DNA of 64,000 nt. It comes from Eledone cirrhosa (taxonomy: Eukaryota). Positions 3,341 to 61,118 of this stretch are shown piece after piece (position 1 is the stretch's first letter; the number at the start of each line of letters is the position of its first letter). The translations under genes were made by a program, and so were the position numbers. Under the pieces are notes generated by a model, which ran no database searches, had not been told where the DNA came from, and saw only the letters and a program-made list of their open reading frames with translations. The DNA is taken from positions 25,544,001-25,608,000 of the forward strand of contig OZ024758.1 in NCBI GenBank assembly GCA_964016885.1, in the 5' to 3' direction.

Positions 3341-3597
3341 TAGGAAATTTTCAGGCAACCCTTGTATTCACTTTGTTTTATATATAAATGTTGGTTTTGT
3401 TTTGACTTGAATTATATTAAGGGTATACGTGTTTGTGGAATGCTCAGCCACTTACATGTTAATGTCATAAGCAGGCTGTTCCATTGATTGAACAAATGGA
3501 ATACTCATCGTTGAAACTGGTGGAGATCCATTGTGTATCGTATAATAAGGAATATTTTGTTGTAGTTCATGTTTTCTCATAATTGTATTGATTGATA

Positions 3598-3668
3598 TGT
3601 GTGTGTAGTTGGCTGTATGTGTATGTCTGTAGTTGTGAGTCAGCATATATATATATATAATGTAAGTA

Positions 3669-3700
<32 letters not shown>

Positions 3701-3986
3701 CACATATATATGATATATGTCTATATGTGTATATGTATGTTTATGTTATGTATGTATGTGTGTGTGTATGTATATATATATATATATATATATATGATAT
3801 ATGTATGTGTGTATGTATATGTATGTGTGTATGTATATATATGTATGTATATATATATATGTATGTGTGTATGTATATATATGTATATATATATATATGT
3901 ATGTATGTATATGTATGTATGTATATATATGTATGTATGTATATATATATATATATGTATGTATATATATATATGATGTATGTATG

Positions 3987-4045
<59 letters not shown>

Positions 4046-4806
4046 GATGTATATATATATGTATATATATATATGATGTATATATGTATGTATATATATA
4101 TATGATGTATGTATGTATGTATATATATATATATATATATATGATGTATGTATGTATATATATATATATATATGTATGTATATATATATATATGATGTAT
4201 GTATGTATGTATATATATATATATATATATGTATGTATATATATATATATGATGTATGTATGTATGTATATATATATATATATATGATGTATGTATATAT
4301 ATATATATATATGATGTATGTATATATATATATATATATGATGTATGTATGTATATATATATATATATGATGTATGTATGTATATATATATATATATATA
4401 TGATGTATGTATGTATATATATATATGATGTATGTATGTATATATATATATATGATGTATGTATGTATGTATATATATATATGATGTATGTATGTATATA
4501 TATATATATATATATATATGATGTATGTATGTATATATATATATATATATATGATGTATGTATGTATATATATATATATATATATGATGTATGTATGTAT
4601 ATATATATATATGATGTATGTATGTATGTATATATATATATATATATATGATGTATGTATATATATATATATATATGATGTATGTATGTATATATATATA
4701 TATATGATGTATGTATGTATATATATATATATATGATGTATGTATGTATATATATATATATATGATGTATGTATGTATATATATATATATGATGTATGTA
4801 TGTATG

Positions 4807-4837
<31 letters not shown>

Positions 4838-5612
4838 ATATATATATATGATATATGTATGTATGTATATATATATATGATATATGTATGTATATATATA
4901 TATGATATATGTATGTATATATATATATGATATATGTATGTATGTATATATATATATGATGTATGTATGTATATATATATATATGTATGTATGTATGTAT
5001 GTATATATATGTATGTATGTATATATATATATGTATGTATGTATATATATATGTATGTATGTATATGTATGTATGTATGTATATATATATATATGTATGT
5101 ATATATATATATATATATATGTGTATGTATGTGTATATATGATATATGTATGTATATATATATATATGATATATGTATGTATATATATATATGATATATG
5201 TATGTATGTATATATGTATGTATGTATATATATACATATATATGATATATGTATGTATGTATATATATATATATAATATATGTATGTATATATATATATA
5301 TGTATGTATATATATATGATATATGTATGTATGTATATATATATATATATATGATATATGTATGTATATATATATATATATATGATATATGTATATATAT
5401 ATATATATATATGATATATGTATGTATATATATATATATATATATATACTTACTGCGGTTACCTCCGATTCAACCCAGAATAACTTGCCTATATATGTGT
5501 ATATGTATATATATATATGTATGTATGTATATATATGTGTATATATATATGTATGTATATATATATATATGTATATATATATATTTATATATATGTGTAT
5601 GTATATATGTAT
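3598..5612. repeat. Compound (TA)n/(TATG)n/(ATG) microsatellite
   Basis: Direct inspection. Confidence 0.97.
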
Positions 5613-5781
5613 CTTCAGTGTACTTCAAAGTATATGACATATGTTTGAATACCTGTATTATGTTCAATATGTTTTACCAAAGTATTTTGACAAAGAAAAC
5701 TGATTTCATACTCAAAAAAAAAAGAAAGAAAGACAAACAAAATAAAAGATTATTTCTTAATATTTTTGCTTAAAATTCCAG

Positions 5782-5961
5782 TGTCCAGAAACTTGTGATC
5801 CTAATGTATATCAGAAAAGAACAGTACTATGTCAACTTCCAAATGGTCAACCGTTGCCAGATCCAAACTGTAACTTATACAAAAAGCCTGCTGAGACCAG
5901 GCCTTGTCTTCTTTCAACTTGCAACGAAGTGTTTATGTGGAATGTTGGAGCATGGGGCCCT
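5782..5961 (+). CDS. ADAMTS9: ADAMTS9/20-like exon, TSP1 repeat
   Basis: ttccag|TGT...CCT|gtgagt; 180 nt, phase 0-0; CPETCDPNVYQKRTVLCQLPNGQPLPDPNCNLYKKPAETRPCLLSTCNEVFMWNVGAWGP. Confidence 0.9.
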
Positions 5962-7275
5962 GTGAGTAATTAAAAAACAAAAAAAGTTTATTTCTAAATT
6001 CTGCTTTTAGTCTTGGTTATTATTTATTTATGTATTTATATATTTCATGTCACGTTTTGTGATCAATAGTGATGTTTGGTTATTTGTTTCTCGTGGATCA
6101 ATCATGGGTTAACTATATTTACAATGGGATAAGGGATAAGGGATTGCTTGTATAATAACTCAGGCAGAACAAATATAAGAAAGAATATATGTAGTATCTA
6201 TCGTAGTTATGTTATATGTATAGCTGGTGCCTTCGGTCAGTTTTCTTGGTGTCACACTTTATAACTGTTGTGTTTACTGTGGACCTAATGTTTTTAACTT
6301 TCGATCTATTGAGTGCTTTGTGATTACCTCAGACAAATTGAATAGTACTTGCTGTACAACAGCTAAACTTTGATTTACAACTATTATATCACTTTTCTGT
6401 TGCTATTTATCACCTGCTCTCTCCTATCATGATGCATCCCTATTGCTATCTTGCTATTTTATGTTCCTCACACTGTCTTCTACTCAAGTCCCTACCAACA
6501 ACCAACATATAGTTGCTACTGTCCTTCTCCTTCCCCTACCATTCTATCTGTTTCTTCCATTCATTCACCTGCTCCTACTCTCTTCTCTATTGTAATCACA
6601 CTCCTGGACATATTTGTCTGAAAGAACAGAGATGACATAAAGTGGAGAGAACCCTTTAGCTTTCCAAATGATAAAGCAATCTATTTTGGTGTGGATGTCA
6701 CTGTAAAAGATACACCTAGTACACCCTGGTAACTGTTTGGGAATCAGAGAAAACATAGGGTAGCAAAAAACCCTTTAGTCATGTTGAGAATTTGACAACA
6801 TCTCTAGAGTTGCCACCATGATAAAATACATTTAGCACACTGTGGAAACTGGTTCTTGTTCGGAAGAGCATCAAGCCATAGAAACCATGCCAAAAAGACA
6901 TCACACAAGTGAGATATAGCTTTACTGGTCCATCTAGGAGGGCAGTAAATCTCAATAAAAGCTGATCTGGTCTACAATGGTCAACTGAACCCATACCAAC
7001 AGAGAAAGCAAAGGCTGATGATGATGATGATGATGATATAAGTTATATATATTTATTTATTTTCTATGTAGAAAAGTGACAGTGACTTTGAACTTTCAGT
7101 TTGACTGCTTCATCTGGCTGCCAGATAAAGCAATCAAGCTGAAACTTTGAAGTAACAAGAATTTTTACAAAATAAATTTCTACACTCTACTTACCAGTAT
7201 TGAGTGCTCCATCAGTTAATATTTGATTGTTTTAAAAACTATGGTATTTTAAACACATATTCTTATATATATATA

Positions 7276-7526: not shown

Positions 7527-8028
7527 TGGGGAGACCCAAGATGACTTGGGATGAGGTGATAAAAGCCGACCTTACCCAACTACACCTCTCAAAGTCAATG
7601 ACACACGACCGTGACTTCTGGCGTCACGCAGTAATACAGGGTACCCGACCTCCCATGGGTACATGCTGAAGCATATAAACAATATGCCCCCCCCCCCCCC
7701 CCCCCCCACCGCAAGGTGGTCGTGGAGGTGCCACGGCAAAAAAGCACCCAGCCCACACTGTAAAGTGGGCGTGTAGGTGCCACGAAAAAGCACCCAGCCC
7801 ACACTGTAAAGTGGACGTGTAGGCGCCACGAAAAAGCACCCAGCACTCACTGTAAATGAGGTTGGTGTTAGGAAGGGCATCCAGCTGTAGAAATCAAGCC
7901 AGATCAGTTCCTGTATGAGCAAGGCATGGTCAGCCGACCAGACACTGCCCACAACAGGACAACCCGTCTAACCCATGCTAGCGTGGAAGAACGGACGTAA
8001 AACGGTGATGATGATGATGATGATGATG
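7526..8028 (+). mobile_element. 5'-truncated young RTE-clade LINE 3' end in (TA)n
   Basis: Encodes GRPKMTWDEVIKADLTQLHLSKSMTHDRDFWRHAV; 3' UTR and (GAT)n tail; near-identical to 24580-25030 on the opposite strand. Confidence 0.85.
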
Positions 8029-15108: not shown

Positions 15109-15632
15109 TTAAAGATATGAAGGCAAGGAAATTGGCCACCCATCAGAAATATTCACTGAAATTCTGAAAATATCTGGTGAAGCAGGGTTCAAGCTAGTCT
15201 CTCACCGTCAATTAGGTAGTTTAGAAGGCTGTCACACCCAATGACTGGTGCAGCAGTAGTATCATTGTCATCATCATCATCAATTGCTACAGGAACAAAG
15301 GAAATACTTGAGAAAGAAGGACCTATAAGGGAAGCAAACTTAAGAATTAACTTATGAAAATAATAGAGAAAGTTTTCTAATAGAGAAACTAATTAGGATG
15401 ATAATTAGCTTAAATAAGATACAGTTTGGATTTGTACCAAGTCAAGTTCCTACTGATACCTCTCTTCTTAGTAATACAACTGCAAGAGAAGTTCCTAGCT
15501 CAAGCCACTATACCCAGCATTCATTGATTTTAAGAAGGCCTTTGATAGAGTACCACATTCTTAAGTCTGGTGCTATTTCTAGAAAATTCAGTATAGATGA
15601 ATGGCTTGTAAGAGGGATGGAACTCAGTGTAG

Positions 15633-18600
15633 GTGAATAGCAGGTGAGAGTGGGGCAAGCCTTGTATAAGAATGGCAGGTCAGAGTGGGGCAAGCCTTGT
15701 ATAGGAATGGCAGGTGAGAGTGGGGCAAGACTTGTATAGGAATGGTAGGTGAGAGTGGGGCAAGCCTTGTATAGGAATGGTAGGTGAGAGTGGGGCAAGC
15801 CTTGTATAGGAATGGCAGGTGAAACTGGGGCAAGACTTGTATAGGAATGGCAGGTGAGAGTGGGGCAAGTCTTGTATAAGGATGGTAGGTGAGAGTGGGG
15901 CAAGCCTTGTATAGGAATGGCAGGTCAGAGTGGGGCAAGACTTGTATAGGAATGGCAGGTAAGAGTGGGGCAAGCCTTGTATAGGAATAGTAGGTAAGAG
16001 TGATGCAAGCCTTGTATAAGAATGGCAGGTGAGAGTGGGCCAAGCCTTGTATAGGAATGGTAGGTGAGAGTGGGGCAAGTTTTGTATAGTAATGGTAGGT
16101 GAAAGTGGGGCAAGCTTTGTATTGGAATGGTAGGTGAGAGTGGGGCAAGCCTTGTATAGGAATGGTAGGTGAGAGTGGGGCAAGACTTGTATAGGAATCG
16201 TAGGTGAGAGTGGGGCAAGTCTTGTATAGGAATGGTAGGTGAGAGTGGGGAAAGTCTTGTATAGGAATGGTAGGTGAGAGTGGGGCAAGTCTTGTATAGG
16301 AATGGTAGGTGAGAGTGGGGCAAGTCTTGTATGGGAATGGTAGGTAAGAGTGATACAAGCCTTGTATAGGAATGGTAGGTGAGAGTGGGGCAAGTCTTGT
16401 ATAGGAATGGTAGGTGAGAGTGGGGCAAGCTTTGTATAGGAATGGTAGGTGAGAGTGGGGCAAGCTTTGTATAGGAATGGCAGGTGAGAGTGGTACAGGC
16501 CTTGTATAGGAATGGTAGGTGAGAGTGGGGCAAGCTTTGTATAGGAATGGTAGGTGAGAGTGGGGCAAGCCTTGTATAGGATAGGTAGGTGAGAGTGGGG
16601 CAAGTCTTGTATAGGATAGGTAGGTGAGAGTGGGGCAAGTCTTGTATAGGATAGGTAGGTGAGAGTGGGGCAAGCCTTGTATAGGAATAGTAGGTAAGAG
16701 TGATGCAAGCCTTGTATAAGAATGGCAGGTGAGAGTGGGCCAAGCCTTGTATAGGAATGGTAGGTGAGAGTGGGGCAAGTTTTGTATAGGAATGGTAGGT
16801 GAGAGTGGGGCAAGCTTTGTATTGGAATGGTGGGTGAGAGTGGGGCAAGCCTTGTATAGGAATGGTAGGTGAGAGTGGGGCAAGACTTGTATAGGAATGG
16901 TAGGTGAGAGTGGGGCAAGTCTTGTATAGGAATGGTAGATGAGAGTGGGGCAAGTCTTGTATGGGAATGGTAGGTAAGAGTGATGCAAGCCTTGTATATG
17001 TATGGGAGGTGAGAGTGGGGCAAGTCTTGTATAGGAATGGTAGGTGAGAGTGGGGCAAGCTTTGTATAGGAATGGCAGGTGAGAGTGGTACAGGCCTTGT
17101 ATAGGAATGGTAGGTGAGAGTGGTACAGGCCTTGTATAGGAATGGTAGGTGAGAGTGGGGCAAGTCGTGTATAGGAATGGTAGGTGAGAGTGGTACAGGA
17201 CTTGTATAGGAATGGTAAGTGAGAGTGGTACAGGACTTGTATAGGAATGGTATGTGAGAGTGGGGCAAGTCTTGTATTGGAATGGTAGGTGAGAGTGGGG
17301 CAAGCTTTCTATAGGAATGGTAGGTGAGTGGTACAGGCCTTGTATAGGAATGGTAGGTGAGAGTGGGGCAAGTCTTGTATTGTAATGGTAGGTGAGAGTG
17401 GGCCAAGCCTTGTATAGGAATGGTAGGTGAGAGTGGGGCAAGCCTTGTATAGGAATGGTAGGTGAGAGTGGGGCAAGCTTTGTATAGGAGTGGTAGGTTA
17501 GAGTGGGGCAAGACTTGTATTGGAATGGTAGGTGAGAGTGGGTTAACCCTTGTATAGGAATGGTAGGTAAGAGTGATGCAAGCCTTGTATAAGAATGGCA
17601 GGTGAGAGTGGGCCAAGCCTTGTATAGGAATGGTAGGTGAGAGTGGGGCAAGCTTTGTATAGGAGTGGTAGGTTAGAGTGGGGCAAGACTTGTATTGGAA
17701 TGGTGGGTGAGAGTGGGGCAAGCTTTGTATAGGAATGGTAGGTGAGAGTGGGGCAAGTCTTGTATAGGATAGGTAGGTGAGAGTGGGGCAAGTCTTGTAT
17801 AGGATAGGTAGGTGAGAGTGGGGCAAGTCTTGTATAGGATAGGTAGGTGAGAGTGGGGCAAGTCTTGTATAGGATAGGTAGGTGAGAGTGGGGCAAGCTT
17901 TGTATAGGAATGGTAGGTGAGAGTGGGGCAAGACTTGTATTGGAATGGTAGGTGAGAGTGGGGCAAGCTTTGTATAGGAATGGTAGGTGAGAGTGGGGCA
18001 AGCCTTGTATAGGAATGGTAGGTGAGAGTGGGGTAAGTCTTGTATAGGAATGGTAGGTGAGAGTGGGGCAAGTCTTGTATAGGAATGGTAGGTGAGAGTG
18101 ATGCAAGCCTTGTATAGGAATGGTAGGTGAGAGTGGGGCAAGTCTTGTATTGGAATGGTAGGTGAGAGTGGTACAGGCCTTGTATAGGAATGGTAGGTGA
18201 GAGTGGGGCAAGTCTTGTATTGGAATGGTAGGTGAGAGTGGGGCAAGCCTTCTATAGGAATGGTAGGTGAGTGGTACAAGCCTTGTATAGGAATGGTAGG
18301 TGAGAGTGGGGCAAGTCTTGTATTGTAATGGTAGGTGAGATTGGGGCAAATCTTGTATTGGAATGGTAGGTGAGAGTGTGGCAAGTCTTGTATAGGAATG
18401 GTAGGTGAGAGTGGTACAGGCCTTGTATAGGAATGGTAGGTGAGAGTGGGGCAAGCCTTGTATAGGAATGGCAGGTGAGAGTGGGGCAAGCCTTGTATAG
18501 GAATGGTAGGTGAGAGTGGGGCAAGCTTTGTATAGGAGTGGTAGGTTAGAGTGCGGCAAGACTTGTATTGGAATGGTAGGTGAGAGTGGGGCAAGCTTTG

Positions 18601-21600
18601 TATAGGAATGGTAGGTGAGAGTGGGGCAAGACTTGTATTGGAATGGTAGGTGAGAGTGGGGCAAGCCTTGTATAGGAATGGTAGGTGAGAGTGGGGTAAG
18701 TCTTGTATAGGAATGGTAGGTGAGAGTGGGGCAAGTCTTGTATAGGAATGGTAGGTGAGAGTGGGGCAAGTCTTGTCTAGGAATGGTAGGTGAGAGTGGG
18801 GCAAGTCTTGTATAGGAATGGTAGGTGAGAGTGATGCAAGCCTTGTATAGGAATGGTAGGTGAGAGTGGGGCCAGTCTTGTATAGGAATGGTAGGTGAGA
18901 GTGGGGCAAGTCTTGTATAAGAATGGTAGGTGAGAGTGGAGCAAGTCTTGTATAGGAATGGTAGCTGAGAGTGGGGCAAGCCTTGTATAGGAACGGCAGG
19001 TGAGAGTGGGTTAACCCTTGTATAGGAATGGTAGGTAAGAGTGATGCAAGCCTTGTATAAGAATGGCAGGTGAGAGTGGGCTAAGCCTTGTATAGGAATG
19101 GTAGGTGAGAGTGGGGCAAGCTTTGTATAGGAATGGTAGGTGAGAGTGGGGCAAGACTTGTATTGGAATGGTAGGTGAGAGTGGGGCAAGCCTTGTATAG
19201 GAATGGTAGGTGAGAGTGGGGCAAGCTTTGTATAGGAATGGTAGGTGAGAGTGGGGCAAGACTTGTATTGGAATGGTAGGTGAGAGTGGGGCAAGCCTTG
19301 TATAGGAATGGTAGGTGAGAGTGGGGTAAGTCTTGTATAGGAATGGTAGGTGAGAGTGGGGCAAGTCTTGTATAGGAATGGTAGGTGAGAGTGATGCAAG
19401 CCTTGTATAGGAATGGTAGGTGAGAGTGGGGCAAGTCTTGTATTGGAATGGTAGGTGAGAGTGGTACAGGCCTTGTATAGGAAAGGTAGGTGAGAGTGGG
19501 GCAAGTCTTGTATTGGAATGGTAGGTGAGAGTGGGGCAAGCCTTGTATAGGAATGGTAGGTGAGAGTGTGGCAAGACTTGTATAGGAATGGTAGGTGAGA
19601 GTGGTACAGGCCTTGTATAGGAATGGTAGGTGAGAGTGGGGCAAGCCTTGTATAGGAATGGTAGGTGAGAGTGGGGCAAGTCTTGTATTGGAATGGTAGG
19701 TGAGAGTGGTACAGGCCTTGTATAGGAATGGTAGGTGAGAGTGGGGCAAGTCTTGTATTGGAATGGTAGGTGAGAGTGGGGCAAGCCTTGTATAGGAATG
19801 GTAGGTGAGAGTGGTACAGGCCTTGTATAGGAATGGTAGGTGAGAGTGGGGCAAGCCTTGTATAGGAATGGTAGGTGAGAGTGGGGCAAGCCTTGTATAG
19901 GATAGGTAGGTGAGAGTGGGGAAAGTCTTGTATAGGATAGGTAGGTGAGAGTGGGGCAAGCTTTGTATAGGAATTGTAGGTGAGAGTGAGGCAAGACTTG
20001 TATTGGAATGGTAGGTGAGAGTGGGGCAAGCCTTGTATAGGAATGGTAGGTGAGAGTGGGGTAAGTCTTGTATAGGAATGGTAGGTGAGAGTGGGGCAAG
20101 TCTTGTATAGGATAGGTAGGTGAGAGTGAGGCAAGCCTTGTATAGGAATGGTAGGTGAGCGTGGGGCAAGACTTGCATAGGAATGGTAGGCGAGAGTGGG
20201 GCAAGTCTTGTATAGCAATGGTAGGTGAGAGTGGGGCAGGTCTTGTATGGGAATGGTAGGTGAGAGTGGGGCAAGTCTTGTATAGGAAATGTAAGTAAGA
20301 GTGATGCAAGCCTTGTATAGGAATGGTAGGTGAGAGTGGGGCAAGTCTTGTATAGGATAGGTAGGTGAGAGTGGGGCAAGACTTGTATTGGAATGGTAGG
20401 TGAGAGTGGTACAGGCCTTGTATAGGAATGGTAGGTGAGAGTGGGGCAAGTCTTGTATTGGAATGGTAGGTGAGAGTGGTACAGGCCTTGTATAGGAATG
20501 GTAGGTGAGAGTGGGGCAAGTCTTGTATAGGATAGGTAGGTGAGAGTGGGGCAAGTCTTGTATTGGAATGGTAGGTGAGAGTGGTACAGGCCTTGTATAG
20601 GAATGGTAGGTGAGAGTGGGGCAAGTCTTGTATTGGAATGGTAGGTGAGAGTGTTACAGGCCTTGTATAGGAATGGTAGGTGAGAGTGGGGCAAGTCTTG
20701 TATTGGAATGGTAGGTGAGAGTGGTACAGGACTTGTATAGGAATGGTAGGTGAGAGTGGTACAGGACTTGTATAGGAATGGTAGGTGAGAGTGGTACAGG
20801 ACTTGTATAGGAATGGTAGGGGAGAGTGGGGCAAGTCTTGTATTGGAATGGTAGGTGAGAGTGGGGCAAGCCTTGTATAGGAATGGTAGGTGAGTGGTAC
20901 AGGCCTTGTATAGGAATGGTAGGTGAGAGTGGTACAGGCCTTGTGTAGGAATGGTAGGTGAGAGTGGGGCAAGCCTTGTATAGGAATGGTAGGTGAGAGT
21001 GGGGCAAGCCTTGTATTGGAATGGTAGGTGAGAGTGGGGCAAGCCCTGTATAAGAATGGCAGGTGAGAGTGGGGCAAGCCTTGTATAGGAATGGCAGGTG
21101 AGAGTGGGGCAAGCCTTGTATAGGAATGGTAGGTGAGAGTGGGGCCAGCCTTGTATAGGAATGGCAGGTGAGAGTGGGGCAAGCCTTGTATAGGAATGGT
21201 AGGTAAGAGTGATGCAAGCCTTGTATAAGAATGGCAGGTGAGAGTGGGCCAAGCTTTGTATAGGAATGGTAGGTGAGAGTGGGGCAAGACTTGTATTGGA
21301 ATGGTAGGTGAGAGTGGGGCATGTCTTGTATAGGAATGGTAGGTGAGAGTGGGGCAAGTCTTGTATAGGAATGGTAGGTGAGAGTGGGGCATGTCTTGTA
21401 TAGGAATGGTAGGTGAGAGTGATGCAAGCCTTGTATAGGAATGGTAGGTGAGAGTGGGGCAAGTCTTGTATTGGAATGGTAGGTGAGAGTGGGGCAACTT
21501 GGTGTATAGGAATGGTAGGTGAGAGTGGGGCAACTTTGTGTATAGGAATTGTAGGTGAGAGTGGGGCAACTTGGTGTATAGGAATGGCAGGTGAGAGTGG

Positions 21601-21905
21601 GGCAACTTGGTGTATAGGAATGGTAGGTGAGAGTGGGGCAACTTGGTGCATAGGAGTGGTAGGTGAGAGTGGGGCAACTTGGTGTTTAGGAATGGTAGGT
21701 GAGAGTGGGGCAACTCGGTGTATAGGAATGGTAGGTGAGAGTGGGGCAACTCGGTGTATAGGAATGGTAGGTGAGAGTGGGGCAACTCGGTGTATATGAA
21801 TGGTAGGTGAGAGTGGGGCAACTCGGTGTATAGGAATGGTAGGTGAGAGTGGGGCAACTCGGTGTATAGGAATGGCAGGTGAGAGTGGGGCAAGTCTCGT
21901 CTAGG
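15633..21905. repeat. 35-bp G-rich minisatellite, about 180 copies, derived from RTE RT coding sequence
   Basis: Unit GAATGGTAGGTGAGAGTGGGGCAAGCCTTGTATAG; flanked on both sides by collinear RT sequence. Confidence 0.97.
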
Positions 21906-23121
21906 GATGGCATCAGTAGAGTGAGAGTTGACAATGAATTCAATGAAGAATTTACTGTGCAGGTAGGTGTTCATCAAGGCTCAGTCCTCAGCCCCCTTCT
22001 AGTTATTACAGTTCTTCAGGCCATGACAAAGGAGTTTTAAACTGGTTGTCAATGGGAGCTCCTATATTCTGATAACCTAGATCTTTTAACTGGATCTATA
22101 GATCTAAGAGAAGAAATTCTAGACATGGAAACAAAATCCACTATCAAAATACTCAAAATAAATATAACAAAGACTAAAGATTATACTGAAGTGAAAACCA
22201 AACCAAAACAGTGAGTGTATCTTACTATTTTTGGCAATATTAGGTCATGACCCTCCCCTACGTAGGAAAAAAGACAAGACCTTTTTGCCACCAATCAAAT
22301 GACTGTGCATGATAAATAAAAAATGAGTAGGTAGGAATTCCATATGATGTACTCAATGTAAACTATGAGTACACAAGAGGTGTAGTGGAATTGCCAGCAA
22401 GTTAACAGAAAAGGTAAACATTGTGTGACAGGTGTACAAGATAATTAGCAATCATAGTACTGGTAAAATAAAAATTTTCCAGTGCTTGGAAGACACCATA
22501 GAAATAGCTGATGACTTCTGTTACTTAGGTAACCTAATTAGCAGTGGAGAAGGGTACTCTGAAAACATAATAGCTTAAATATGAACAGGGTGGAAAAAGT
22601 TCAGAGTTATAACCTTTGTTGGCAACAAAGGGATTCTCTCTCCAGGCTAAAAGTAAATTGTATGCTATTTTTGTATGTAGTGCAATGTTACATGGTAACA
22701 AGATATGAGGGTTGAAATCAGAGGATGTGCCAAGACTAGGGAGAAATAGCATAAACATAATTGTTCTTACACACTGGATATGTAATGTTAGTGTGTAAGA
22801 ATGATGAAAGACAGAGGAGTTGAAGTAAAATCTCGGTATAAATGGAGTTGGGTGGTGTGTAAAAGAGAGAAGACTGCGCTGGTATGGACATGTAGTACAT
22901 ATGGTTGATGGAAGTTGGGTAAAGAAGTGCCAGGAATTCCAAGATAAATGTAGCTGTGGTAGAAGACCAACAAAAACTTGGTGAGAAGGGTTGAAAGCTG
23001 ATCTAAGAGTGTTGAACCTCTCAAAGGAATGCAACAAGTAGTGAGAGAGTGTTTTGGAGAAGACCTTTCCAACCCATGCAAGCAAAGAAAGGCAGACATA
23101 AAAAAATCGATAATGATGATC

Positions 23122-23510: not shown

Positions 23511-23587
23511 AATGATATATATATATATATACCTGCTCTACTTGATGTATTCAATACTCTACTTTAATTTTAGTTCTCCCATCTAAT

Positions 23588-23597
23588 TATATATATG

Positions 23598-23695
<98 letters not shown>

Positions 23696-23765
23696 TGTAT
23701 ATACATATATATATATATATGTATATATATGTATATACATATATATATATATATGTATATATATG

Positions 23766-23812
<47 letters not shown>

Positions 23813-23857
23813 GTATATATATGTATATACATATATATATATATATGTATATATATG

Positions 23858-23898
<41 letters not shown>

Positions 23899-23923
23899 GT
23901 ATATACATATATGTATATATATG

Positions 23924-23954
<31 letters not shown>

Positions 23955-23965
23955 GTATATATATG
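23588..23965. repeat. (TA)n-rich microsatellite
   Basis: Direct inspection. Confidence 0.95.
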
Positions 23966-24080
23966 TAAAAGTTCTATTTAAATTGTTGGGATACAACAAG
24001 CAAATATTTTTATAACTGATATAAAGCACTCAACAAATAATTGGAGTAAAAATACGATATTAACAAATGGAAACTATATT

Positions 24081-24380
24081 TATAAAACCATATTTATTTC
24101 ATTATACATATTTCAAGGACACCAAGTTAAATTATGGTGTGCTTTCATCAGATAAAATATAATATAAATCAGTTTTATAAATAGATATTGACATACCCTT
24201 AAAGAATGCAACTATTACTGTTGGACTCGGGAGCTTCCAACAGTAATGGTTGCATTCTTTAAGGGTATGTAAATATTTATTTATAAAACTGATCTATATT
24301 ATATTTTATCTGATGAAAGCACACCATAATTTAACTTGGTGTCCTTGAAATATGTATAATGAAATAAATATGGTTTTATA
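24081..24380. repeat. Near-perfect inverted repeat (145-bp arms, 10-nt loop); probable Penelope-like element terminus
   Basis: Arms 24081-24225 / 24236-24380; homologous to 43405-43657 and 60820-60943. Confidence 0.9.
24302..24366 (+). ncRNA. Minimal type-I hammerhead ribozyme motif (mirror copy on - strand 24095-24159)
   Basis: TATTTTAT-CTGATGA-AAGc ACACCA..TGGTGT cCTT-GAAA-TATGTA-TA-ATGAAATA: intact core, stems I and II pair. Confidence 0.7.
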
Positions 24381-24404
24381 TGTGTATAAATATGGTTTTA
24401 TATG

Positions 24405-24570
24405 GACACACTAGAAGAGGAAGACCAAGGTTAACGTATGTTGATGCCCTAAGGACAGACACTGGTCTGTTGGAGGCGCAGGACATGGCAGCGATAATGA
24501 GGGACAGAGACCGCTGGAGAGAACTCATCCATGGATCTCGGGAATTTTACCCGCCTTAGATAGAGAAATA
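24405..24570 (+). mobile_element. 3' end of a second RTE-like LINE family
   Basis: GHTRRGRPRLTYVDALRTDTGLLEAQDMAAIMRDRDRWRELIHGSREFYPP* followed by simple-repeat tail. Confidence 0.7.
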
Positions 24571-29240: not shown

Positions 29241-29345
29241 AGTGTAATAATAGTAGAAATACTAACAGTAATATTTCTGGAAATGAAGAAGTGAAAGTAA
29301 ATTATTTATAAATGCAATGATTGATATATTTTCTTGAATTCTCAG

Positions 29346-29516
29346 TGTTCTGTTGAATGTGGTAATGGTACAAGAACAAGAGAAGTGTCTTGCAAGCAAT
29401 CAAAATATAAAACAATACCTGATAGATATTGTAATAAGAAAAAGAAACCTATGAGTGTAAAGATTTGCTACCCAGCACCTTGTAAATACATATGGAAAAA
29501 AGAAAGGTGGTCTTTG
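29346..29516 (+). CDS. ADAMTS9: ADAMTS9/20-like exon, TSP1 repeat
   Basis: tctcag|TGT...TTG|gtaagc; 171 nt, phase 0-0; CSVECGNGTRTREVSC...CYPAPCKYIWKKERWSL. Confidence 0.92.
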
Positions 29517-29639
29517 GTAAGCTCTTTTTCTTAATAGGATTTTTTTTTTTTTTTCCAGCATGCTGAAGCGTATGTATATATGTCTATGTATGTGTGTAGC
29601 ATATGTATACATTTATATGTATGAGTGTATATATGTAAA

Positions 29640-30887: not shown

Positions 30888-30962
30888 TAATTAATTAGAA
30901 GCTGTACCAATCTAATAATTGATTATCTGTAATAACAGTAAATTATTTATCTTTATTTGCAG

Positions 30963-31133
30963 TGTTCGAAAACGTGTGGATTTGGACAGAAGCAGCGAGC
31001 TGTAAATTGCATGGATTATGAAAACAGATTTTTTGTTGAGGATAGTTATTGTTTATTCAAGAAACCTAAAACTCACAGACGCTGTGCTGAGTTTCCTTGT
31101 CCTTTACAATGGACCACAGGCCCTTGGACTGAT
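30963..31133 (+). CDS. ADAMTS9: ADAMTS9/20-like exon, TSP1 repeat
   Basis: ttgcag|TGT...GAT|gtaggt; 171 nt, phase 0-0; CSKTCGFGQKQRAVNC...CAEFPCPLQWTTGPWTD. Confidence 0.92.
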
Positions 31134-31183
31134 GTAGGTTTTACTTACTTTTTATTAACTTTAAAAACTGAAACTTCTTCATT

Positions 31184-31845
31184 TTAACCCTTTAGCATTT
31201 ACATTACTCTATATATACTATTATATTTTTGAGGTAAAGGCTTTACCTCATATAATTATCTTACATAATTATCTCACATAATATCAAATCTATAAGATTT
31301 TGATATTTATTTTGAGAAAACATCAATATGATTGGCCAGTTACAACTAGTTTGAACAGAAAGAGGTGAGAGAATCTGACTGGATACAGTTGGTTTAACCC
31401 TTTAGCATTCACATTACTCTATATATACTATTATATTTTCATGGTAAAGGCTTTACCTCACATAATTATCTCACATAATATCGAATTTATGAGATTTTGA
31501 AAGTATTTATTTTGAGAACAATACCTTAACATCAGTTTGAGCGACCAGTTACAGCCAGTTTCAACAGAAAGAGGTAGAGAATTCTGGCCGGTTTTGGCCG
31601 GTTTGAACATTAAAGGGTTAAGCCTTTAGTATTTAAACTGGCCATATCCGGCCAGAATACTCTCACCTCTTTCTGTTCAAACCAGACGTAACTGGCCACT
31701 CATACTGATGTTAAGGTATTGATCTCAAAATAAATACTTTCAAAATCTCATAGATTCGATATTATGTGAGATAATTATGTAAGATAAAGTCTTTAACACA
31801 AAAATACAATAGTATATATAGAGGGTTAAGGTGCTAAATGGTTAA
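31184..31845. mobile_element. Three abutting piggyBac-type MITEs
   Basis: TTAACCCTTTAGCATT at 31184 and 31395; GGGTTAAGCCTTTAG junction near 31620; third copy inverted. Confidence 0.85.
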
Positions 31846-31995
31846 GGTGTATGCCTATCACTTTTGTAATTTTCATTATAAAATAATTCAATCAGTTCTA
31901 TTGAATGTTTATTTGTTTCGAATGACATCTATATATATATGCCTCATCAATAAGTTTTAATGTTCCTTTTCTTTTTTTCTTCTTTCTCTCCCCAG

Positions 31996-32181
31996 TGTTC
32001 AGTATCTTGTGGTTTAGGCTGGCAATCTCGTTCAGTGGTTTGTAATTCTGTCTCAAAAGAAAACTGGATACTTGGTGAATCTGAATCATGTAAGAGTTCA
32101 GAAAAGCCTCCATTTCAACGTTATTGTAACTATGGTGATTGCGATGGATATTACTACTGGAAAGTTTTTTCTTGGCAACAT
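31996..32181 (+). CDS. ADAMTS9: ADAMTS9/20-like exon, TSP1 repeat
   Basis: ccccag|TGT...CAT|gtaaat; 186 nt, phase 0-0; CSVSCGLGWQSRSVVC...CNYGDCDGYYYWKVFSWQH. Confidence 0.92.
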
Positions 32182-32234
32182 GTAAATATTGAACTTTGAT
32201 ATTTAAACTATAACTATTGATTTATATTATATAT

Positions 32235-38715: not shown

Positions 38716-38784
38716 TATTAGTGTAATTACTTTTCCTTTTATTTCTTTTTATTGTTTTATTTTCCTGTTTTATTTTCTATTTAG

Positions 38785-38921
38785 ATTGAAAAAGAAATGG
38801 ACTTGTCCTCAGAATGGAAGTCGCATTGACAATTGCTATTGTCACAAAAAAAACTTTAGTAAAGCAGGGTACACGAAATTTTCAAAAGTAAAAATTAATT
38901 TAAAAACATTAACTGTTGTTT
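38785..38921 (+). CDS. ADAMTS9: ADAMTS9/20-like exon, GON domain
   Basis: atttag|A...GTTT|gtaagt; 137 nt, phase 2-1; LKKKWTCPQNGSRIDNCYCHKKNFSKAGYTKFSKVKINLKTLTVV, GON motif CPxNGSRxxxCxC...AG. Confidence 0.93.
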
Positions 38922-42382: not shown

Positions 42383-42448
42383 TTTTAAACAGTAAATATA
42401 AATATTTCATTAATAAAAATGGTCCAATGCTTTCCTTTTTTTCATCAG

Positions 42449-42540
42449 TAAATGACTTCACTTTTGCAACCACCCGAAATGGAAAAAATGTCCCATTTGG
42501 TACAAGTGGAGATTGTTATAGTTCTTTGAATTGCCCTCAA
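42449..42540 (+). CDS. ADAMTS9: ADAMTS9/20-like exon, GON domain (last visible exon; CDS incomplete)
   Basis: catcag|TA...CAA|gtaagt; 92 nt, phase 1-0; (L)NDFTFATTRNGKNVPFGTSGDCYSSLNCPQ, matches the GON motif VPFxTxGDCYSxxxCPQ. Confidence 0.93.
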
Positions 42541-42859
42541 GTAAGTCCACAAGTTTCTTACAAGGTTTTTCATTTTTGTTTTTGTTTGTTTTCATTTAAG
42601 ATTAGATTTTAAAACAATACTCTAACTTGAATCCTTTTGATACCAACCAGCTCGAAACTACCTCAGTTTCTACAAAACAAGACCACCCATTTTAAAGAAC
42701 TCACGTTTACTGATTATACACGGATATAAGCCCAGGAATATGTGACCAAAATGGGGAGGTAGGGTCGGTTTCTATATACCATCTAAACAATGTGTTGATT
42801 AGCTGCCTCAGCTTATAAACGGGGTTTGGTTCATTGCCCATTTCTCAGACATAAAATAG

Positions 42860-42987: not shown

Positions 42988-43404
42988 AAAGTTCTTCAGA
43001 ATATAAGGAACTCTCAGAGAAAAATTTCGACGGACAAAAGGGGGCGTTTAGCCTAAATGGGTTGAGAACCTGTGGTTTAGATCATCAGAGAGCATTTTCC
43101 TTTCCTAGGACAAAAATTCCCAGGAACGGCAAAATATATTGCCATCTGCCAGCTAGCACAGGATCGAATGGGGCCGAAAATTTGACCTATGCATGAACCA
43201 GCCCATAGTAGAAGCAGAAGTAAACATAGATACATTGTCTACCTCGCCACTAAAAATAGCAGCTAAATAGAACAACAGATTTGTTCTCTACATAACGGAG
43301 AATATTAAAAGAAGTTAATATCCCCACAGGTACTAAGTACCCCTGGAAATATATATATATATATATAATATCAATGATATTAAATAAATGGAAACTATAT
43401 TTAT

Positions 43405-43657
43405 AAAACCATATTTATTCTATTATATATATTTCAAGGGTACCAAAACTTTGGTACGCTTTCATCAGATAAAATACAAAGTTTGTTTTATAAATTTTGA
43501 CATAACCAAGAAAAAATACCTTAACAGTTCAAGTTTTCCTTGGATAGTTTTTCTTGGTTATGTCAAAATTTATAAAACAAACTTTGTATTTTATCTGATG
43601 AAAGCGTACCAAAGTTTTGGTACCCTTGAAATACATATAATAGAATAAATATGGTTT
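43405..43657. repeat. Near-perfect inverted repeat (about 110-bp arms); probable Penelope-like element terminus
   Basis: Arms 43405-43514 / 43548-43657; homologous to 24081-24380. Confidence 0.9.
43587..43647 (+). ncRNA. Minimal type-I hammerhead ribozyme motif (mirror copy on - strand 43416-43476)
   Basis: TATTTTAT-CTGATGA-AAGc GTACCAAA gt TTTGGTAC cCTT-GAAA-TACATA-TA-ATAGAATA. Confidence 0.72.
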
Positions 43658-44098: not shown

Positions 44099-44298
44099 NN
44101 NNNNNNNNNNNNNNNNNNNNNNNNNNNNNNNNNNNNNNNNNNNNNNNNNNNNNNNNNNNNNNNNNNNNNNNNNNNNNNNNNNNNNNNNNNNNNNNNNNNN
44201 NNNNNNNNNNNNNNNNNNNNNNNNNNNNNNNNNNNNNNNNNNNNNNNNNNNNNNNNNNNNNNNNNNNNNNNNNNNNNNNNNNNNNNNNNNNNNNNNNN
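44099..44298. other. Assembly gap (200 N)
   Basis: Run of N. Confidence 1.
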
Positions 44299-44312
44299 AA
44301 TACGGTGAAAGC

Positions 44313-54808
<10,496 letters not shown>

Positions 54809-55739: not shown

Positions 55740-55920
55740 TGGGTTGATGAGGCTATTTAACCCATAGTTGGGTAAATTTATTTCTACGGCTGAGTGAACT
55801 GGAGCAACATGAAATAAAGTATTTTGATCAAGAACATAACGCAAAGCGCGGTCCGAGAATCGAACTCACAAACTCAGGATTGTAAGCCCGGCGCTCTAAC
55901 CACTAAGCCATGCGCCTTCA
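55740..55920 (-). mobile_element. tRNA-derived SINE
   Basis: Minus head GGCGCATGGCTTAGTGGTTAGAGC...GAGTTCGATTCT. Confidence 0.75.
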
Positions 55921-60786: not shown

Positions 60787-60855
60787 GTTCCAGACGGAAG
60801 TTGAACCGTTGAGGTCTGATTCCTGGATATGTCACTATTTATAAAACAAACTTTG

Positions 60856-60916
60856 TATTTTATCTGATGAGAGCGTACCAAAGATTTGGTACCCTTGAAA
60901 TATATGTAATAGAAGA
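60856..60916 (+). ncRNA. Minimal type-I hammerhead ribozyme motif, unpaired copy
   Basis: TATTTTAT-CTGATGA-GAGc GTACCAAA ga TTTGGTAC cCTT-GAAA-TATATG-TA-ATAGAAGA. Confidence 0.68.
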
Positions 60917-60943
60917 AATATGGTTTTATAAATATAGTTTCCA

Positions 60944-61118
60944 TGGCAGTATCGGTAGAGGGTCGGACGCCATGCTTTCCAGCATAGTTACGTCCCTTTA
61001 CGATCTGAGTTCAAATCCCGCCGAGGTTGACTTTGCCTTTCATCCTTACGGGGTCGATAAAATAAAGTACCAGTAATGCACTGGGTAATTTCTGGCCTTG
61101 TGCCTAAAGTAGAAACAA

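Follow-up and report, generated by a model that had tools for sequence, protein, structure and literature searches.

The intronic hairpin that we have analysed here is very probably a stump of a Hydra-clade Penelope-like retroelement (PLE), consisting of two 5'-truncated pLTRs that sit in a (TA)n tract in head-to-head orientation; the pairing of its arms is likely a by-product of the insertion, and its hammerhead ribozyme would be idle with or without the antisense arm. The hairpin is located in the window (the 64-kb stretch of DNA that was analysed, to which all coordinates without a locus handle refer), and in itself it is one of many truncated retroelement copies, in an arrangement that has already been published.

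The hairpin and its host gene

The two arms (24081-24225 and 24236-24380) form Watson-Crick pairs at 141 of 145 positions, and the hairpin is predicted to fold at -221.7 kcal/mol (z -34.8), a value that none of 100 shuffles equalled. The pairing, the fold and the flanking exons bear out the description of a 145-bp intronic hairpin with sense and antisense hammerhead arms that was given in the initial annotation, while the extent given there was too small: the left arm reaches 23967 and is 259 nt long. The exact complementarity that was also claimed applies to the ribozyme segment (24302-24366 against 24095-24159), but not to the whole arms, where four positions depart from Watson-Crick pairing, i.e. 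24167/24294 (A.C), 24190/24271 (G.A) and the wobbles 24184/24277 (G.U) and 24213/24248 (U.G). The features of the hairpin, its flanks and one full-length element are listed in Table 1.

Table 1. Positions of the hairpin features, of the adjoining sequences and of a full-length element of the same family.
Feature	Position	Strand	Description
(TA)n-type microsatellite	23581..23966	.	target site of the left arm; read directly from the sequence
Left arm	23967..24225	-	inverted 5'-truncated pLTR with complete hammerhead and long 3' tail; ends in (TA)n-type tract
Antisense hammerhead copy	24095..24159	-	exact reverse complement of 24302-24366; antisense on the pre-mRNA
Hairpin turn	24226..24235	+	mostly the element's own near-palindromic sequence; compared with natural copy L058
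Right arm	24236..24380	+	5'-truncated pLTR without its tail; stops 22 nt beyond the cleavage site
Type I hammerhead motif	24302..24366	+	motif scan, fold, covariation across sister families; predicted cleavage 3' of 24358
Stem I	24302-24309/24359-24366	+	8 bp
CUGAUGA core	24310-24316	+	motif scan
Stem II	24317-24346	+	9 bp with one C.C mismatch; GAAA next
Helix III		+	minimal, nearly palindromic: 2 bp, 4-nt loop
AUA cleavage triplet	24356-24358	+	
Short local duplication of the right-arm end	24381..24401	+	joins the arm to the next repeat; read directly
3' fragment of an unrelated abundant repeat	24402..24560	+	short open frame; contigs of the repeat extend upstream from 24402 into other sequence
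Full-length element L051	pLTR 3375-3633, ORF 3681-5909, pLTR 7672-7845		

Each of the four differences between the arms is a minority allele among 43 family copies, three of them occurring in the left arm and one in the right; each is of a different substitution type, none is compensatory, and a single one is A>G. An editing scar has been rejected on this last count, just one difference in four being A>G. An apparent A-versus-C rule between the arms at 24271/24190 across hairpins has been recognised as an artefact of using the rare A allele as the query; C occurs in 36 of the 38 copies that cover the site, and C/C or A/A pairs exist.

The same differences bear on two other explanations of the hairpin. 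A fold-back artefact of sequencing or assembly is extremely improbable: chimeric long reads can yield perfect palindromes, and none of the contigs listed covers the stretch from end to end (an observation that favours neither view), but the arms differ at four places and end unequally, and many other loci have the same geometry with different junctions. Co-option, where the hairpin would serve as a host regulatory element, siRNA source or editing substrate for the ADAMTS gene or for the silencing of the family, could draw on the length of the duplex, as near-perfect dsRNA of 145 bp is a good Dicer/ADAR substrate. Antisense small RNAs from Penelope copies are moreover described for a rotifer in the relevant part of PMC3846280. 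The insertion, however, is young and one of hundreds alike (an extrapolation from the core count and the 30-site sample given below), and its uncompensated differences are family alleles with a single A>G among them; we consider co-option very unlikely.

The hairpin lies in an intron and its right-arm ribozyme is on the pre-mRNA strand, as had been stated, with + strand ADAMTS/GON exons on both sides. TSP1_ADAMTS exons are scored on the + strand at 5761-5970, 30942-31184 and 31954-32196, GON exons at 38771-38920 and 42448-42546, and a further TSP1-type exon has been read at 29325-29531; the hairpin is situated between the exons that carry the donor seen at ~5960 and the acceptor seen at ~29346. 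A spacer exon of the same gene is located upstream, at a distance of 22 kb from the window. Neither the window nor the next 50 kb yielded the last GON exon, and a reprolysin search gave no match at the ADAMTS/GON gene, so that the mapping stops short of both gene ends. The same intron contains a G-skewed tandem repeat of ~6.4 kb (15500-22000), the minus strand of which has long open frames.

At the insertion, where the flanks were read directly and the microsatellite lies on the left, no target-site duplication is visible. The unrelated repeat on the right (24402..24560) we take to be the end of an RTE-type LINE, probably.

The arms belong to an abundant PLE family with head-to-head copies, a preferred target and two preferred 3' ends

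Both arms match a dispersed repeat, the longer copies of which, traced upstream, lead to the end of an ORF with a cysteine linker; the search for this ORF end listed 155 places, with 150 scored of 72,165 first-look candidates, and these figures are not copy numbers. All 259 query positions of the left arm are matched in 40 scored copies at 98-100% identity, and the arm matches the pLTR and tail of full-length elements at 87-96%; the right arm has 52 matches in the genome search. Ten loci with long ORFs were fetched, several of which consist of a pLTR, an ORF of 743-746 aa, a 3' region and a second pLTR, in many cases preceded by an inverted pLTR. Near full-length Hydra-type elements with open frames of this length are seen at L049:3672-5900, at L051:3681-5909 and, on the minus strand, at L052.

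The 743-aa protein of L051 contains RT-like motifs, NVVY/YVG, RWR (at residue 38), DKT, CxCX5C, CxxC ahead of E and CxH behind N, the last four of these being located at residues 119, 602, 700 and 718. As in EN+ PLEs, the pLTRs surround one ORF with RT plus an endonuclease of the GIY-YIG type at its C-terminus, and 5' truncation, an inverted upstream copy and an optional 3' tail are found as well. The traits that the family shares with the Hydra clade, as it is described in the portion of PMC8557442 that concerns it, are the single ORF with its C-terminal GIY-YIG-like domain, DKT in place of DKG, the CxCX5C linker without CX2-5CxxC (which is absent from the L051 ORF), CxxC/CxH around E and N, the pLTR hammerhead, insertion into (TA)n and an inverted 5'-truncated copy beside the pLTR. 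In contrast to the same description, the family has RWR instead of RWK, 3' ends ~85 nt apart as against a tail of 30-40 bp, and copies in the thousands; its units, measured from pLTR start to pLTR start in L051, L052 and L058, are 3.7-4.3 kb long, above the "generally <3 kb" of the clade, which is a tendency and not a rule. The supplement of PMC8557442 may already list this family.

The atlas clusters nearest to the ORF (0.96-0.98) have members part of which carry GIY-YIG, RVT_1 or HTH_animal, while sequence searches of the ORF in Pfam, NCBIfam and PDB gave no meaningful match; judged by motifs, anatomy and atlas, the element would be placed in the Hydra clade. A non-LTR retrozyme, i.e. tandem direct repeats with a hammerhead each and no ORF, has been rejected as a candidate: the copies here are inverted and the element bears an ORF. 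A broken ORF with RT and GIY-YIG-like motifs (L034:125-1733) apparently belongs to a different element, which we take to be a canonical Penelope-type one.

Copies of the family are very numerous, with 2,943 exact occurrences of the 57-nt ribozyme core in the genome, as against 0 for the reversed-pattern control. Among the first 30 sites by position, an inverted upstream partner that covers the core is present within 1.5 kb at 10 (9 of 29 insertions, two of the paired sites being one insertion), only a partial inverted piece that omits all or part of the ribozyme at six, and neither kind at 14; a diverged inverted copy occurs downstream at three of the 30. Neighbours less than 5 kb apart among the first 100 listed sites form 11 head-to-head, 0 tail-to-tail and 5 direct pairs, and the 314 kb around the window contain five head-to-head pairs (the hairpin studied and four more, among them the one at 43376-43657 in the window), each of a different hammerhead variant.

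The insertions have a common surrounding, with (TA)4 just downstream in 28 of the 29 sampled, and they end at two sharp 3' positions ~85 nt apart (24060-23967 on the minus strand of the window; L089-L118), which are located ~50 and 136 nt beyond the ribozyme site; in L051, both lie upstream of the long ORF's first Met. The short end is used by 15 of the 29 insertions, the long one by 13 and another by one; the left arm has the long end, 136 nt beyond the cleavage site, whereas the right arm, unlike 28 of the 29, reaches neither. At the opposite side, the hairpin turn coincides with the commonest 5' truncation point of the family: 11 of the 29 insertions start 73-86 nt ahead of the core, as both arms do here, i.e. 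at the short palindrome of the turn.

The value of the hairpin lies in this family, an abundant Hydra-type PLE with long open ORFs, identical ribozyme cores in such numbers and two sharp 3' ends, of which there are enough copies to test both the cost of a pLTR hammerhead to its host gene and the origin of the inverted arm.

The hammerhead motif and its predicted folding

The motif scan and the fold agree with the initial annotation on the intact CTGATGA/GAAA core, stems I and II, the minimal helix III and the AUA triplet, and an intact motif is present on the minus strand too (24095-24159). The structural characteristics of a type I hammerhead are present, i.e. the CUGANGA, GAAA and NUH core, three stems and covariation. 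In the covariation alignment, both partners change in 12 of 20 pairs, and pairing is kept in 96.6% of cells, as against 39-52% in slid controls; the alignment comprises 28 of 62 variants from sister families, hand-chosen, with one or a few per family. The pattern by which the variants were collected required the core together with 5 bp of stem I and 2 bp of stem II; the invariance of the core and those pairs are thus built in, and only the changes in outer stem II provide independent support. Rfam returned no hammerhead at gathering score in the 64-kb window, and none among the six matches with E<=10 in 24240-24420.

Metazoan PLE hammerheads, in the sections of PMC4209133 and PMC6765202 devoted to them, have the same type I topology, long helix II, opposite-strand pairs and short palindromic helix III suited to dimers; compared with these, stem I is longer here (8 bp and, in addition, an extension), and stem II opens with an A-U pair, where G-C is usual.

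In the folding model, all six hammerhead pairs tested have a probability of 0.0 when the upstream arm is included. When it is removed, stems I and II form (0.64-0.95) and helix III does not (0.0007; 0.0008 for the motif alone), while the 8-nt helix III segment is predicted to pair with itself as a dimer at -2.2 kcal/mol. Of the self-silencing that had been proposed, the burial of the ribozyme in dsRNA is reproduced by these predictions, and the silencing device is not: no helix III is predicted for the lone ribozyme even in the absence of the arm, which probably leaves little to be silenced. The sequestered ribozyme would probably be inactive alone anyway, and a blocked mini-ribozyme of this kind is most likely an ordinary by-product. 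Some self-cleavage by a lone monomer is possible, as folding models ignore tertiary contacts; the helix III found here (2-3 bp) is also larger than that of the minimal motifs shown to be inactive, which possibly leaves room for monomer activity.

Proposed origin of the paired arms and their possible tolerance in introns

Parts of PMC3846280 and PMC8557442 describe adjacent head-to-head inverted pLTRs that have a palindrome at their junction and a tail on one side, and interpret them as self-priming; minimal PLE hammerheads in opposite-strand pairs 100-700 bp apart appear already in the first description of PLE hammerheads, in part of PMC4209133. The Penelope of Adineta vaga (PMC3846280, in the part that treats it) resembles the hairpin in its adjacent inverted pLTR, head-to-head orientation, one-arm tail and junction palindrome, while the hairpin differs in having neither the element body nor, in its microsatellite, a visible target-site duplication. 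For a purified PLE system, the account that we draw on in PMC11167929 has reverse transcription starting at two internal sites by which the tail is delimited, the ribozyme cutting only with the element's protein, and insertion taking place without a need for cleavage.

We propose that the endonuclease of the element would nick an AT-rich target, that reverse transcription would begin inside the RNA, ~50 or 136 nt past the ribozyme site, and that the inverted copy would arise where the short palindrome close to the usual 5' end folds back or primes a second time; four point mutations and the loss of the right tail beside another repeat would have come later. In the host pre-mRNA, the arms are predicted to zip into 145 bp of dsRNA and then to be spliced out, while the hammerhead is expected to need either a second sense copy (through the 8-nt helix III dimer) or the protein of the element, neither of which is predicted nearby.

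The antisense copy (24095-24159) is indeed transcribed before the ribozyme, as had been noted; a head-to-head pair, however, has its antisense copy first on either strand, by geometry, and the order of transcription is therefore uninformative on selection. A selection filter would nevertheless be conceivable, where hairpins arise mechanically, unpaired sense hammerheads cut the pre-mRNA and are purged, and the paired, self-blocked ones become over-represented in introns. Sequestration by the upstream arm is predicted to be complete; the two sense hammerheads that are located within the mapped gene span or shortly after it (24310, 43595) are both paired, and the pattern scan found no solo sense hammerhead inside that span. 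Against a background of about one third paired, these two cases lean weakly toward the idea of the initial annotation that such an arrangement may let insertions be tolerated. Xenopus introns are also reported, in the accessible part of a preprint (10.64898/2026.07.22.740005), to be depleted of tandem retrozymes, yet 42-44% of them are still intronic, and given this depletion, selection on intronic hammerheads is plausible. On the other side, helix III is predicted to be missing from the monomer, single minimal motifs without cleavage have been published (PMC4209133, in the part concerned with them), and head-to-head pairs also occur 50-155 kb upstream of the first mappable exon, a stretch that may still include part of the gene. 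We regard such a filter as unlikely, and it is similarly doubtful that filtering lets head-to-head copies survive in introns and thereby seeds hundreds of perfect dsRNA hairpins that feed editing and the small-RNA silencing of the family. The thousands of near-identical copies in the genome permit a direct count. A literature search at the level of titles and beginnings of abstracts, weak as a negative, gave nothing on intronic PLE hammerheads being sequestered by an antisense copy.

Several other features of the window and its surroundings have been recorded in addition to the hairpin, which we continue to read as an insertion by-product. A second head-to-head pair (43376-43657) belongs to a sister family, ~75-80% like the first, and is complementary at 111 of 113 positions; it follows the last GON exon found and is probably in an intron of the same gene. 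A solo sense hammerhead of the sister family occurs at 60820-60945 (core 60864), without an inverted partner; it may lie either inside the gene or beyond it. Upstream of the window, further types of hammerhead that differ in stems I and II are likewise arranged head to head (L134:9124 and L133:993; L144:5574-5821). A short motif 25-45 nt before the core (24265-24272) is kept in three otherwise diverged families (L142-L144), and it may represent a splice donor, start codon or promoter element. A 200-base N gap (44099-44298) is followed by ~10 kb almost without G and C (44099-54700). The sole Rfam match at gathering score in the window, just above that score, is a tRNA-like match on the minus strand (55845-55915), which is probably the head of a SINE.
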